64,000 nt of DNA from Parachlamydiales bacterium (GCA_963765145.1 CAVXVG010000029.1:232066-296065); one strand, 5' to 3'; numbered from the stretch's first letter, positions 5,135-63,739 are shown. Notes: a model not told the origin generated them from the sequence alone. Program-made: numbers and translations.

Positions 5135-5230
5135 CGCAACGCGTTTGGAGTGCTAAACTCCTGTTTAGCTTTGACTTATCAGTAAAAAGTGAAAGCTAAA
5201 CAGGAGTTTAGCACTCCAAACGCTAGCGCG
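5135..5230. repeat. Palindromic repeat family A
   Basis: GCGTTTGGAGTGCTAAACTCCTGTTTAGCTTT..AAAGCTAAACAGGAGTTTAGCACTCCAAACGC between convergent genes; near-identical copies at 9977, 33502, 44706. Confidence 0.95.
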
Positions 5231-5232
5231 AT

Positions 5233-5751
5233 CTAGTAGGAGCGGGCGAGGAAGAGTCGGGAAGCGCCGTAGAAAATGAGGTTGATGCCGACGAGCAAGC
5301 CTATGGCCCACAACGAGGTGCCTGGCCAACCGCTCCAAATGAGGAAGCCAAGTATTAGAGTTACAATTCCACTTAGTAAGACCCAACCCCAATTCATTAA
5401 CGGACGGACAGCTGTTGAAAAAATGATCTGAAAAAGGCCCTCTACTAAAAAGAAGATCGCCAAAAGAATTGTTAAAGTGATGACACCTTTCAATGGATAG
5501 AAGAGGAGTAAGCAGCCCACTATGATATAAAGGATAGCGCTTAAAATTGAGGGCCAAAACCCGGGAAGCTTAGGCGTTGTCAAAGCACGCCAGCCTTGCA
5601 CAAGCCCACCTGCCAAAAACAATGTTCCGATTAACAACTCTACCGCAAAAGTCATGATCACAGGTGCAAAAACGCCAACTATCCCTAATAAGAGGAAACA
5701 GATCCCTTCAACATACAAAGTTTTACCGTACCAAACAGGGTGATCTTCCAT
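5233..5751 (-). CDS. HdeD/DUF308 family membrane protein
   Basis: About six hydrophobic segments, WP..SLWAIGLLVGINLIF C-terminal motif; ATG at 5751 with GAGGAG upstream. Confidence 0.85.
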   Translation of the reverse strand: MEDHPVWYGKTLYVEGICFLLLGIVGVFAPVIMTFAVELLIGTLFLAGGLVQGWRALTTPKLPGFWPSILSAILYIIVGCLLLFYPLKGVITLTILLAIFFLVEGLFQIIFSTAVRPLMNWGWVLLSGIVTLILGFLIWSGWPGTSLWAIGLLVGINLIFYGASRLFLARSY

Positions 5752-5765
5752 ACCTTTACTCCTCA

Positions 5766-5926
5766 AGACCTCTTACACAACTTCATTTGCTTGCTAAAAC
5801 TGCGCTTTTTGGCGACTTCATCTTTAAATTTATCGGCAATATGTAGATATTGCCGATAAATTTAAAAGATGAATTCGCACAAAAATCATCAGCTTTTTCA
5901 AGCAAAGCAAGTTATGTAAGAGGTCT
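5766..5926. mobile_element. Palindromic MITE-like element, family J
   Basis: Ends AGACCTCTTACACAACTT / AAGTTATGTAAGAGGTCT; central hairpin TTTAAATTTATCGGCAATAT-GTAG-ATATTGCCGATAAATTTAAA. Confidence 0.8.
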
Positions 5927-6090
5927 ATTTGCTGTCCCTATACCAAAGCCCATTTTTTTACGGTAGTCCAATTTTAAAAATGATTAAACACCTGAAATTC
6001 AACTAAAACAGATGAATTAAGACTTAACTTTGTTAATAAATTGTTTATTTTGTATTAGGAAAATTAAAGATCAAACGTGGAGGTTAAGTC

Positions 6091-6726
6091 ATGAAACGGA
6101 TGTCATTAGCGGGGGTAGCTCTATTAGGCTTATCTCTTGTTTCTCCCCTTGTAGGAGACAATGTCCCATCTAGGTTCTTAAATGTGAACCCATACATAAA
6201 ATATACGCCTGTTGCAGACACTTCTGCTCCAGCAATGAATAGTACATCTAATATGAATTCATCAGTTAACGGGGTAATGGACGACCAAAAAAACCCTGCC
6301 ACCTACATGAACTCTGAAACTAAAAATCTTATCGAAAAGGCAAAGGATAATCCTAACCTTTCAACCTTTATTTCTGCTTTAAAAGCTGCCGGGTTAAGTG
6401 ACACCCTCGCAAACGGTGGTCCATACACCATTTTTGCCCCTTCAAACGACGCTTTTAATCAACTCCCTAAAGGTGTGCTTGATAAACTTTTACAAAATAA
6501 AAAAGATCTCGTTTCTATTTTGACCTATCATGTTGTCCCAGGACAAATCTTATCAAAAGATGCTAAGACTATGAAAATCAGGACACTTAATGGCCAAGAT
6601 CTAAACCTAGAATCTGTTGGCGGGTTAATCACTGTGGATGATGCCGAAGTGATCCAACCTGATATCAAAGCGAAAAACGGCGTGATCCATGTGATCGACG
6701 AAGTGATTTCGCCTCCAGCAAAATAA
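6091..6726 (+). CDS. Secreted fasciclin (FAS1) domain protein
   Basis: Signal peptide; YTIFAPSNDAF, ILTYHVV and NGVIHVID motifs. Confidence 0.92.
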   Translation: MKRMSLAGVALLGLSLVSPLVGDNVPSRFLNVNPYIKYTPVADTSAPAMNSTSNMNSSVNGVMDDQKNPATYMNSETKNLIEKAKDNPNLSTFISALKAAGLSDTLANGGPYTIFAPSNDAFNQLPKGVLDKLLQNKKDLVSILTYHVVPGQILSKDAKTMKIRTLNGQDLNLESVGGLITVDDAEVIQPDIKAKNGVIHVIDEVISPPAK

Positions 6727-6926
6727 GCTAATAGTAGTTGTTTTCTTCTTCTCTGCCCTTCGGGATCCCCCGAAGGGTTTTTCGCTCATAACCCTCTTAC
6801 ACAACATCACCATTACCTACATCCCACCCTTTCTTCAATCAGCAGAATTTTCTATCAAACCGTTAATGATAATCTTTTTAAATCGCATTTTTTGTATAAT
6901 TTCCATGCATTTTTATTGGAAATTTT

Positions 6927-60511: not shown

Positions 60512-61244
60512 GGCACAATTCCTCACCGCGTTTTAGATCAATTTTTTCTTTGTAATCCATTACCTGATCTAAAAGTAACCAATATTTCCAATTCTTGTTG
60601 GCCTTGGTCAGTTGATCAAAATTGTCAATCTCTTCTGGTAATCGCAGTAGAGCCGCAACTTTTCGATCAGAAGCTGCCAACTTTGCAAGTTCAGCCTGTT
60701 TCTGAGCAAGCTCGCTTGCTGCTCTTTCTGGCTCAGTTATTCTTTCGAGCTCTTTCTTTCTTTTGTCGAGTATTTCACGTTGTGAGTCGGCTTCTCCTCG
60801 TAAACGTTTGACCTTCTCAGAATGTTTCGTCCTTTCTGCCTGGTTAGGGGTAAGGGTCAACTGTCCATATGCCCGTTGCGCCAATCTTTCGCTGCTATCG
60901 ATCATCTTTTGGTGATGATTGATGCTTTTTGTTAGGTCCACTATTTTTTTTGCCTCAATTCCTCTTCGCTGAGAACAGAGGGGGCATGGGTTATTTCCTC
61001 TAAGTATTCTTCGAACTTCTCGATTCTATACCCATCGATATCTCTTATGACGTAAAGCCCTATCAAACAACTTTTCTCTCAAAAATTTTCTTACCTTCCA
61101 CGTTTTGAGTGAGCGATGTAGATAGTTCATTGATAGCCCTATGGAGGTGTATTTGTTGAATCCATACAACATCGGTTACCAGACCTATTTTGTTCTGGTT
61201 GTTGTGGAGATCATACCATTCACCATCCTTTGGATCGCTGCCAT
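60510..61244 (-). pseudogene. Degraded paralog of the U-box effector N-terminal region
   Basis: DNFDQLTKAN..YWLLLD vs DNFDKLTEAN..YWLLLD; EEYLEEI-like remnant near 61000; boundaries approximate. Confidence 0.7.
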
Positions 61245-61514
61245 CTATCTTTTCCTATTTTTGAAAAGCAATTGCAACAAAAAAATGGATAAATTAAATA
61301 AATTTAAAATAAATTTTTATTAACAAGATTGCAACAGTAACTTCTTATGAGGCTGTTTTTCACCTATTCATCCATTTCATTCAAAAAAATATTACATTTA
61401 AAGAGGGATTTCAAGGTAGAGCTTGTGACTAAGGCGCTGATTTAACTAGTTCGCTTAATGTAACCTCTATCGAAAATTAAAATAAAATTAATTGTTTGAT
61501 GTTATAATTTTGAT

Positions 61515-63024
61515 ATGACTAATCTCTCAAGAATAAAAAATACACAAGAGCCTTTAGGGGCAGAAACTTTTTTGAATAAAAGATTTCCGCTCCAGAAAGC
61601 GACCAAAGAGATAGAAAGATACCGCCTCCATCCAACAAATGACCCTTTTGAGCTACTCAATCTTGAACGATTTTTACGAAGCTGTATAAAAGAACTTAAA
61701 CACGAAGATTTAGAAATATTGTATGAAGTGCAAACAAAACTATTTTCTAGACTTAGACAAGAACACGACAAAAACCAAGATCAGAATCAAATTAGTGATT
61801 GGGAACGAACAGCTATCATTCTTCTGAGTTCTACTGAAGAAAAAACCCAACCGGAAAAGGAACTTATTGAGTCATTTTTCCAATATGCATTTGGGAACAA
61901 AAGGCTTATCCAAAAAATAAGACGACACCGGCCTATCATTACTAGCTGATGATGTCATCCAATATTGCGAACTAACACTAGTTGCAAAAGAAATTGAAAC
62001 GATAAGCAAGATCGCAGAAAGCTTTCTAAACGGCAACAAGAACACCAAACCACTTAACTTAAAAGACATTGGATGCCTTCTTGTGATTCATGATTTAATA
62101 AGTCACTACGATCTTGAAAATGTTGTTCCTGAATTGGAAAAAGAGAAATACCTAATTATTGTGAACGCTCATCATATAGCGACCCACCTTTTAAAAAAAA
62201 TTGAACAAGAGGCTCGAAACACCTTCAAGCCTGGGGATTTGTTGTTTGTAAATGCATATAAATCCAGGGAACTTGACCCTTCCGCTTATACAGAATCTCT
62301 CTTAGAAAATGGGACGAATTGGCTTTATGACCGAATTGTCGGGAAATATGATCATACAAAGATTTTTAGCTCTTCTTCCCCTCAACTTACTTATTCTTAT
62401 ATCTGGTATAGACACCACAACGAAAGTTATGAACCTGAAATTGCTTTAACTTCTACAGTTATAAGAATTTCTCCAGAGAAGCTTTTAAATAGCAAATATA
62501 GAGAAATGGTTTTGCAGAAAATTGGTCTACAAACACTTCAAGAAATGTATCAATCTGCCGCTGCCGAAGTTAACGAGAGAGTTAAATTAGAAAAAACTGA
62601 AAACAATCTTCTTGGATATGGACTTTACGCTATCTTAGCTGATGCAATTCCTAAGGGACATATTGGTTTTAGTGAAAGCGCAAGCATCAGAAAATGGGGC
62701 CAGACTGTTTTAGATTCAAAGCCCGAAGAGTTTCAAGAGCGATTCATAAGCAGAGAGACACCCAACAACCTTAATTGCTCAGAATTCGCTGCGAGAGTGA
62801 CTGTCTTGGCACTCGTATTACTTAATAATCGTTTAGCAGACCTACTCAATGTGCCTCGGGACCAAAAAATCATTGCCACACCATTTAATGAAAACGAGAA
62901 GCTCCACTTAATGCACCCTTGCCTGCTCTATCAATACACACAAAAATGTGGAACAAGAATTAACCTACCAACCATAACCCAAATTTTCTCTCCACAAACC
63001 TCTTACATAGCTAGCAAGCTCTAA
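61515..63024 (+). pseudogene. Permuted NlpC/P60 (YiiX/LRAT-like) domain protein, frameshift near 61920
   Basis: FKPGDLLF..YDH..NCSEFAA, His before Cys; second frame open from 61921; span is 3n+1. Confidence 0.65.
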
Positions 63025-63052
63025 GTAAGAGGGGCTGGGGGCCAGTCAGGGA

Positions 63053-63552
63053 TTATTTCTTTACTTTTGGGACGACGGGGACAAAAGCAACAACATCGGG
63101 CTTTGGGAACTCTTGTGTGAACTCGTTTTCATGGAAAGGTAGCCACTCTTGGTTCCTTCCGAAAATTAGAATTTTGCCTCGGACGATCAGGTTTCCTTTT
63201 TGTTAACCCACAGTTCTGCGCCATACTCTTTTCCTTTTTGCGGGTCGATGATATTACCAACAAATTTATGGTCTTTTGGCACTAGATTATAGATCAGGTC
63301 GAGCCCTGCATAATGGGGATCGCCCACTACGCCGGGAGCCCTTTCATCCGGAGTGTAGATGGTATCTTTTAACTCGCCGGTATGTTCATCGTAAGTGGCT
63401 ACTATTCTCCCATAGTACTTACCTTTATAAGGATAGACTGCCACAACGCTTTGTGCTTTTTTTGTAGCATCATCAATTGTTTTCCAAAAGCCTACAATGT
63501 CTGCAGCTAGAACAGAAAACGTGAAAAGCAGGGAAAAAAGAAAAACCTTCAT
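63053..63552 (-). pseudogene. DUF2147 protein copy 2, -1 frameshift
   Basis: 500 bp vs 501 bp; T5 at 63197 vs T6 at 57967. Confidence 0.88.
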
Positions 63553-63608
63553 CGAGAAACCTGGGGCAGTATTTCCCCTACATACCAAAACGAATATATA
63601 CACACAAA

Positions 63609-63739
63609 TTTAACCCTTGCCCCTGCCCTTGCCCTTGCCCGTGCCCGAGAATTCCTGAGTAAAAAGGTCGTCTGTTAGTTCTTAGAAAGCTTTTTTATTA
63701 GAAATTCGGGCAGAGGCCTAGGCAAGGGCAAGGGTTAAA
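63609..63739. repeat. Family H inverted repeat
   Basis: TTTAACCCTTGCCCCTGCCCTTGCCC..GGCAAGGGCAAGGGTTAAA. Confidence 0.85.

Follow-up and report, generated by a model that had tools for sequence, protein, structure and literature searches.

What put palindromes inside palindromes in the intergenic DNA of a chlamydial genome? The question was raised by a stretch of 64 000 nucleotides from a Parachlamydiales bacterium (GCA_963765145.1; C29:232066-296065), here called the window, for which a first-pass annotation made from the sequence alone had described about 20 intergenic loci built from some ten palindromic repeat families (A–J) nesting in one another. The nested palindromes are real, occur genome-wide and are stacked in a fixed order. 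We consider it probable that they were built by targeting on the part of transposon ends, alternating with the capture of hairpin cargo. By this mechanism two kinds of transposon end, B and I, would insert at exact positions in hairpins A and E, which are of the repetitive extragenic palindromic (REP) type; the ends would have captured hairpin units (C1, C2, E, F, N, K and A) a few times, and the captured units would then have been copied as cargo. Such targeting would have been favoured since it spares genes in a compact genome.

Sequence data and repeat census

The source genome amounts to 2.68 Mb in 37 contigs (85% complete, 3% contamination). Contigs of this genome are given by C-numbers with coordinates and compared genomes by G-numbers; G001 is a single-contig congener with which the window is syntenic, mostly at ~75% identity. 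The compared genomes are kin chosen by hit strength, so that counts among them show recurrence and not frequency. Gene calls were home-made (2425 genes, 84% coding, some small genes missed).

BLAST of the window against its own genome gave 24 high-copy segments, and mapping of the motifs gave 20 loci, two of which consist of a lone stray arm, in line with the number first reported. Nineteen arm motifs cut from the window or the genome were counted genome-wide against reversed-motif controls, with 409 matches versus 45 for A, 181 versus 14 for B, 84 versus 2 for C1, 73 versus 1 for F and 160 versus 4 for H; the G motif alone was not above its control (3 versus 2), and the remaining arm motifs were well above theirs. 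Filtering reduced 1539 matches to 1351, forming 526 loci, of which 162 hold at least two families, an overcount because K, M and O probably belong to a single compound element. That no copy interrupts a gene was borne out almost completely, a single multi-arm locus of 359 lying wholly within a predicted gene and 12 overlapping gene ends by >30%. Intervals between convergent genes hold more loci than their share of length would give (137/353 versus 23%, P = 1e-11), and those between divergent genes hold fewer (45/353).

Families A, C1, C2 and E have the traits of REPs and of REPINs (REP doublets): short hairpins, inverted doublets, extragenic position and many copies. E and K begin with a GTAG foot and A with GGAG; in C1 and C2 a GTAG foot is not clearly recognizable. 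Throughout the genome A encloses B; B encloses C1, E, K, F, N or a further A; E within B encloses I; and I encloses C2 or N, in nests up to five layers deep. The nesting had been called combinatorial, a description that does not hold, the order being fixed and the cargo exclusive (C1 in B, C2 in I).

Insertion of B into A

B is a MITE, a miniature transposable element with inverted repeats. Among 55 paired B ends, 27 are bordered by a 9-bp duplication (≤1 mismatch), which in 22 is the same 9-mer of A, and eight are shells that retain both outer A arms with the interior gone. After one false pair had been dropped, A lay on a flank of 46 of 54 pairs, compared with 2.0 expected in intergenic DNA (P = 9e-58) and with 20.6 expected on the assumption that insertion is confined to DNA of A, E, N, H and F (P = 1e-12), the copies behind these P values not all being independent. 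The nesting therefore exceeds random intergenic insertion, as had been proposed. The pair table contains no B end flanked by E, though E is abundant. Six B copies carrying C1 are ≥99.6% identical and lie in both arms of different A variants; five of them duplicate the 9-mer of the local variant, which argues for separate insertions.

A is also the host of other elements. All four visible flanks of three full-length copies of an insertion sequence (IS) of the IS903 group are A, and five of five copies of an IS110-family IS lie at one further bond of A, giving the type 1 association of REP-targeting IS for both; the MITEs, at 46/54, do not reach 100%. Element T, which lacks terminal inverted repeats and carries F, sits at the GGAG of the outer A arm with the GGAG repeated; about 17 left ends, counted by eye, share this further bond, which is that used by the IS110-family copy on contig C25.

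The B site is symmetric, GGAG-N7-CTCC, and GGAG stands at positions -12 to -9 of 86 of 141 B ends. This motif occurs 196 times in the genome, 169 times at A and five times in other intergenic DNA, so that an 8-bp preference would suffice for the observed targeting; sequence and structure readings are inseparable here because the motif was read from A. B would read the symmetric motif and I, as described below, a hairpin loop.

Insertion of I into hairpin loops

Of 41 candidate pairs of I ends, 28 were kept and 13, long or poorly matching, were dropped. Hosts were assigned by direct flank matching, since assignment by BLAST mask undercounts E (14/28). The flanks are the loop of E in 20 of the 28 and the loop of A in four (24/28 together). 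Twenty elements have an exact 4-bp duplication, seven an inverted one and one has none. Loop sequences differ (TTTA, TCCT) and each is duplicated, which suggests that I reads hairpin structure rather than sequence. Eight copies that are ≥99% identical sit in different copies of E, and the full-length I-type IS sits in E within B within A. The insertion sites of two other MITEs, J and S, are outside repeats, which makes these elements internal controls. The idea that the families are mutual landing sites thus survives in part: B enters A, and I enters E or A, at fixed bonds, but the relation is not mutual.

Cargo of the B and I ends

Of 84 C1 arms, 58 are placed directly within a B end and one within an I end; of 36 C2 arms, none is directly within B and 28 are directly within I. 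For E the counts are 33 of 104 inside B and none inside I, and no arm of H, J, D, P, S, R or O was found directly inside either end. Spacers between end and cargo are constant in length within a lineage, their sequence drifting (21 nt in 30/53 for C1; 19 and 22 nt for E). The 11 B ends with A inside, which had been taken as evidence of reciprocal nesting, share one homologous spacer and so represent a single old capture that was later copied, not targeting in the reverse direction. Every paired B MITE of the source genome carries hairpin cargo, and the cargo of its B and I MITEs is non-coding only. Most copies of C1 and C2 appear to have been spread by ends belonging to DDE transposases, not by an enzyme of their own. 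The route by which cargo first entered the MITE ends is one that we infer.

Putative mobilising enzymes

No transposase had been seen in the window, and no transposase family was matched in a Pfam scan of 65 of its 97 open reading frames (ORFs); the cognate mobilisers lie elsewhere in the genome. The terminal repeat of B is that of an IS5 element of the IS903 group (contig C2:1-1115, contig C25 and C29:69607-70720; one frame intact, C2:82-1050), the transposase of which scores 296 bits with NF033579 (cut-off 140). The terminal repeat of I is that of a full-length 391-codon DDE element (C27:207333-208791). Its transposase fits IS1182 best, at 120 bits with NF033551 (cut-off 270), and scores 69 bits with the IS5_4 model (cut-off 140), so that the model cut-off does not place it in the IS1182 family. 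S has the ends of another DDE IS, with a 9-bp duplication. On the evidence of the shared termini, the IS903-group and I-type transposases would do the moving. The proposed shells are MITEs of known IS kinds and their hairpin cargo is of the REP/REPIN kind; the division into shells and cargo stands, and the parts are less new than was first proposed.

Of the enzymes that had been suggested for a search, Y1 transposases, including REP-associated tyrosine transposases (RAYTs), and an IS5 family are present, and an IS982 transposase for G is not, with no PF13612 match over the cut-off in the 85%-complete assembly. Six Y1_Tnp genes were found in the genome. One lies between inverted C1 arms (C21:218940-219416) and one between inverted C2 arms (C24:56678-57169), and both bear the Y---Q--HH signature of subclass 1.2 (PMC6006769). 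E arms flank two RAYT genes (C5:119131 and C28:46754), one passing the NCBIfam cut-off for REP-associated tyrosine transposases and the other frameshifted. C1, C2 and E each flank a cognate HUH/Y1 gene. A long form with a DnaA-type helix-turn-helix is flanked by family Q, and one Y1 gene adjoins a divergent gene that by eye we take to be tnpB (IS605-like). For A the link comes from other genomes: an A-like repeat flanks a Y1 gene in G012, and among 44 loci of that RAYT clade, drawn from many phyla, the terminal 9-mer of A lies within 300 bp in 38 (on both sides in 31), and within 200 bp in 37 compared with three at 0.8–1 kb. The arms of A, C1, C2 and E are putative substrates of cleavage and mobilization by RAYTs.

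A search of the window with Rfam gave only one tRNA and one match to Acido-Lenti-1, a family of unknown function; the match falls on a C2 arm (35620-35664), which suggests that the hairpin of Y1 elements of subclass 1.2 is what this 'RNA' family represents.

The arms of D/P enclose no gene in 17 loci here, nor in seven D loci among 11 regions of G001. In ~12 of the 17 loci a few bases separate the distal end of D from an end of A, and in G001 D adjoins E carrying I or a remnant of A.

Comparison genomes

In G001 a complete unit of a RAYT gene between C1 arms lies inside B ends which in turn lie inside A (L033:1154-2290). The same genome holds a gene-less derivative of this nest and nests of I in E. 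The orientation of C1 in its B is opposite to that in the source genome, implying separate captures. Further afield, G228, from another family, has seven of eight IS903-type ends at this same position in a repeat of A type. Seven copies of a relative of I in G123 have 4-bp duplications in six cases, at sites that by eye are unrelated and share no hairpin.

Of 21 DNA sequencing runs, four were compared (85% likeness), and two of the four have a contig joint that skips A(B(C1)), with 27 other letters between the D arms; the sides of this joint are <30 letters, so that this is a hint at most and may come from another locus.

One-gene cassettes

F and H go with GxxExxY and four-helix-bundle genes, respectively. 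The source genome has a single four-helix-bundle gene, which stands between inverted arrays of H. Of the 30 GxxExxY genes fetched from other chlamydiae, 27 have F no more than 200 bp away, compared with 2/30 far from the gene, and tandem 6–7-mer arrays lie beside 13 of 20 four-helix-bundle genes compared with 0/20 far. The exact H 11-mer of the window is near only one of these 20, the signal coming from the looser tests. The four-helix-bundle genes (TIGR02436-type; L166–L185) often have inverted 6–7-mer arrays, the word differing by lineage.

IS903-type ends enclose F, GxxExxY, transposase and F in multi-copy elements of G087 and G108; one in G108 (L112:1427-2989) has F arrays inside both ends and a divergent GxxExxY gene. 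A gene-less B MITE carrying F is abundant in G009. GxxExxY between F arms is also found in other multi-copy IS-like units, in G172 (L147:1790-3550) and G014 (L157:1744-2446), which have 17 and 16 GxxExxY matches per genome. GxxExxY as the sole mobilizer of its multi-copy units is not supported. By eye, the 1.76-kb unit common to the ten copies fetched (of 17) in G172 holds a transposase-like frame and the G014 unit starts in a transposase-like end, presumably of IS630 and IS5 type, respectively.

Passenger genes between IS ends are therefore found in relatives (a RAYT inside B in G001, GxxExxY in G108). It is possible, and we put this forward tentatively, that in chlamydial genomes IS ends are the real vehicles of the hairpin elements, DDE transposases evolving to aim at REP hairpins (for B through sequence, for I through loop structure) and ferrying REPINs, whole RAYT units and one-gene cassettes of an undescribed class. 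The cassettes would then be a GxxExxY nuclease or a four-helix bundle between inverted short-word arrays, with F, N and H possibly as their gene-less forms, a proposal that is equally speculative.

Weighing of the explanations

Several observations weigh against nest building by targeting and capture. Of the 55 B pairs, 20 lack both a duplication and a clean shell junction, eight of 54 have no A flank, and two pairs of B copies share flanks and may not be independent. No empty B was found among the 54 pairs, so that the direction of capture is not shown in the source genome. The reading frame is disrupted in two IS903-type copies out of three and in one E-type RAYT out of two, tblastn found no RAYT cognate to A in the 85%-complete assembly, and no partner of D/P, T, J, R, G or K/O was found in the genome. 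IS903-type ends lie in A in none of eight shown for G002 and none of 15 shown for G009, so that targeting of A is not a group-wide trait. The sole GxxExxY gene of the source genome has an N element next to it on a single side and is not enclosed by F arms. Mobility, finally, is read from sequence scars and no transposition was observed.

The nests could instead stem from a few ancient insertions, whole composites having been copied by the enzyme of the outermost element (e.g. the RAYT of A) or by gene conversion. The A variants that host B are indeed similar, the copies at C19:6617 and C25:6006 share both flanks, and recombination among copies is evident from shell junctions and mixed spacers. 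Identical B copies are nevertheless found in both arms of A and in both orientations, with duplications that match rare local variants (GTTTCGCAC, GTGTGCAAC), and the same host repeat is used by full-length IS, by the plain MITEs of G228 and by an unrelated IS110; we hold this explanation to be unlikely, the variant-matched duplications having already largely refuted it. It is also quite improbable that insertion is unspecific, and that nests arose since only intergenic repeat DNA tolerates it through limited space and purifying selection. Such selection, or a function at 3' ends, would give the sparing of genes, the convergent enrichment and the divergent depletion, and limited space may well explain the first entry of cargo into MITEs. 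It does not explain single-bond precision, a P value of 1e-12 even when only repeats are open, the lack of E-flanked B ends despite abundant E, or the landing of J and S outside repeats. Limited intergenic space as the cause of nesting was rejected for B and I by the flank test.

A host-maintained regulatory system of terminators or mRNA stabilizers, with mobility secondary, would fit the 3'-end and convergent bias, the conserved stems with diverging spacers of constant length and the match of a C2 arm to an Rfam motif. We regard it as very improbable: the same element was found in none of 11 orthologous intervals of the congener, many copies at least 99% identical point to recent spread, and conserved stems are expected from enzyme recognition as well. 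That the composites arose as chimeras in the assembly of a metagenome bin rich in repeats is suggested by the 37 contigs, several ending in repeats, and by the 3% contamination; exact target duplications, flanking genes syntenic with G001 and the same architectures in that single contig and in G228 make this scarcely credible.

Features of the window

The repeats of the window are listed in Table 1. Inverted arm pairs are present in all seven composites first named. The one given as A>F is A interrupted by T, which carries F. Target duplications are exact at E>I>C (35491) and A>B>C (44564); the nests G>E, A>B>A, A>B>E and H>F are decayed but present. J has been labelled IS5-like, which is an assumption by resemblance.

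Table 1. Repeat elements of the window, with positions counted from its first nucleotide.
Position	Element	Remarks
5135–5229	A, ~95-bp inverted doublet, GGAG-footed hairpin, REPIN-like	Stand-alone
5767–5925	J, 158-bp MITE, not nested	Partner not found; 5 genomic pairs, none repeat-flanked
9978–10073	A	Stand-alone; orthologous G001 interval empty
15521–15745	H remnant, decayed B right end, F	F arms 15544–15594 and 15673–15723
16818–16981	G shell (14-bp inverted arms) enclosing E	E at 16834–16939
19755–20199	F then B right end, remnants of B carrying F	235-bp tandem duplication
22738–22842	E, GTAG-footed REP doublet with inner hairpins	
25435–25613	F, inverted arms with 9–11-nt unit	Type bracketing GxxExxY genes
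27115–27281	G, 167-bp terminal-inverted-repeat element	Low copy
33444–33688	Decayed B carrying A, within very degenerate outer A	Inner A 33500–33596; single B[A] lineage
35405–35464	K/M arm, GTAG-footed hairpin plus outer hairpin	Partner not found
35491–35885	E, right hairpin loop interrupted by I	
35585–35869	I, MITE	4-bp loop duplication TAAA; one of 8 copies ≥99% identical
35621–35825	C2 cargo doublet inside I	Same arms flank Y1 gene C24:56678-57169
35894–36045	D–P arm	
39956–40053	H, inverted hexamer arrays	Type bracketing four-helix-bundle gene C26:202607-203002
44562–45167	P/D inverted arms around A(B(C1))	
44706–45091	A interrupted by B	9-bp duplication GTGCTAAAC at 44723–44731 and 45010–45018
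44732–45009	B, MITE, terminal repeat of IS903-group IS	One of 4 copies ~99% identical
44772–44972	C1 cargo, tail-to-tail doublet	Same arms flank Y1 gene C21:218940-219416
46604–46719	S MITE with K-type hairpin, outside other repeats	Ends match DDE IS C21:30885-32429
51627–51900	A interrupted at GGAG by T (51646–51817)	Tail-to-tail F at 51694–51772
57501–57721	A enclosing B (57530–57697) enclosing E	E left arm shortened
58373–58429	H arm	
63599–63737	H doublet	

Among the neighbouring genes, a glycogen synthase in two frames (25670-27116) is followed directly by a G element. A P-type hairpin remnant stands after rpsN (35345-35400), likewise in G001 (L252), and is possibly an older insertion kept as a terminator. 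A PEBP-family gene (45164-45643) had no cover in the four runs, one contig joining across it, and may vary between strains. Two paralogous ~400-residue proteins (27349-28949 and 56254-57447, one truncated) match no Pfam family and share an upstream region. Recent partial gene duplications, of a clpB piece, a DUF2147 gene and a metG-like tail, cluster at the contig end (54189-54488/55801-56100, 57823-58323/63053-63603, 59954-60149/63761-63956 and 55668-55813/62903-63048). Proteins with F-box-like and U-box domains, which are typical of the host-directed proteins of environmental chlamydiae, are encoded at 50551-51573 and 58462-59874.

Relation to known systems

IS that target REPs are known (ISPsy8, ISPa11, ISPpu9/10, ISRm22 and ISRm19; Tobes and Pareja 2006, PMC1525189). 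As here, they use one position of the REP, sometimes at the axis of the hairpin, make target duplications and in some cases have hybrid flanks, attributed to recombination or adjacent deletion (PMC1525189). The present elements differ in being mostly MITEs loaded with REP-type units, with at least three kinds of IS in a single host repeat and nests of up to five layers. Their cargo resembles REP/REPIN–RAYT systems, REPtrons and TIRtrons in its extragenic inverted doublets, several families and own Y1 HUH gene (PMC3116915, PMC3733652, PMC6006769), and in spacers of constant length and variable sequence. Clusters of REPINs within REPINs are occasional (PMC3116915), and REPs inside longer palindromes and genomes with several REP/RAYT families are also described (PMC3733652). 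In contrast, most C1 and C2 copies are here apparently spread by DDE ends and the foot of A is GGAG; subclass 1.2, the signature of which is carried by the C1 and C2 partners, is generally without typical terminal structures (PMC6006769).

The IS903 group of IS5 makes a 9-bp duplication at WTTYA-N9-TRAAW (PMC2577343, Table 1; 9 bp also PMC13618097). B agrees with this group in the NF033579 match, the terminal repeat common to IS and MITEs, the 9-bp duplication and the symmetry of the target. Its flanks do not follow the published AT-rich consensus, the target GGAG-N7-CTCC lying inside a REP, and the paired MITEs are all loaded. IS1272, of the IS1182 family, inserts into inverted-repeat structures of different sequence, and its model includes an outcome with loop duplication (PMC5678879). 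A palindromic or stem-loop target is common to IS1182-family elements and I, but IS1272 deletes the stem-loop without duplication and I duplicates a 4-nt loop.

In mobile insertion cassettes and transporter IS, the ends move passenger DNA without or besides a transposase gene (PMC3129680); the passengers here are themselves selfish units of hairpin type, namely REPINs, a whole REPtron and GxxExxY cassettes. Bacterial interspersed mosaic elements (BIMEs) and the intergenic mosaics of Neisseria combine several repeat families in interleaved or tandem fashion (PMC3733652, PMC3184786), unlike the concentric insertions with scars seen here, which lack the regular alternating-linker pattern of BIMEs. 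In a literature search confined to open-access main texts, in which GxxExxY was named in three papers, no description was found of nests in chlamydiae, of multi-tier alternation, of REPtrons ferried by MITE ends or of arrays beside genes for GxxExxY or four-helix-bundle proteins; the supplementary REP lists of PMC3733652 and PMC6006769 and a consensus-REP figure could already contain some of the families. REP-targeting IS and passenger-carrying IS ends are already known, and multi-tier alternation was not found described.

How REPINs multiply is unsettled. RAYT genes are reported to be single-copy and apparently no longer to copy themselves (bioRxiv 10.1101/119735). Most copies of two REP-type families lie within DDE-MITE ends here, and a RAYT unit lies within such ends in the congener; the nests would thus offer a second route of spread both to hairpins and to the enzymes that go with them. 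If IS ends are indeed the vehicles, this would be a route of spread for 'immobile' RAYTs and a means of REPIN amplification without a RAYT. Related transposases with and without target specificity (B-type here and in G228 versus G002 and G009; I-type here versus G123) could show how a DDE enzyme gains specificity for a sequence or for a hairpin loop. The genome also shows that ~500 palindromic loci, from many mobilizer families, can be present in an obligately intracellular lineage.

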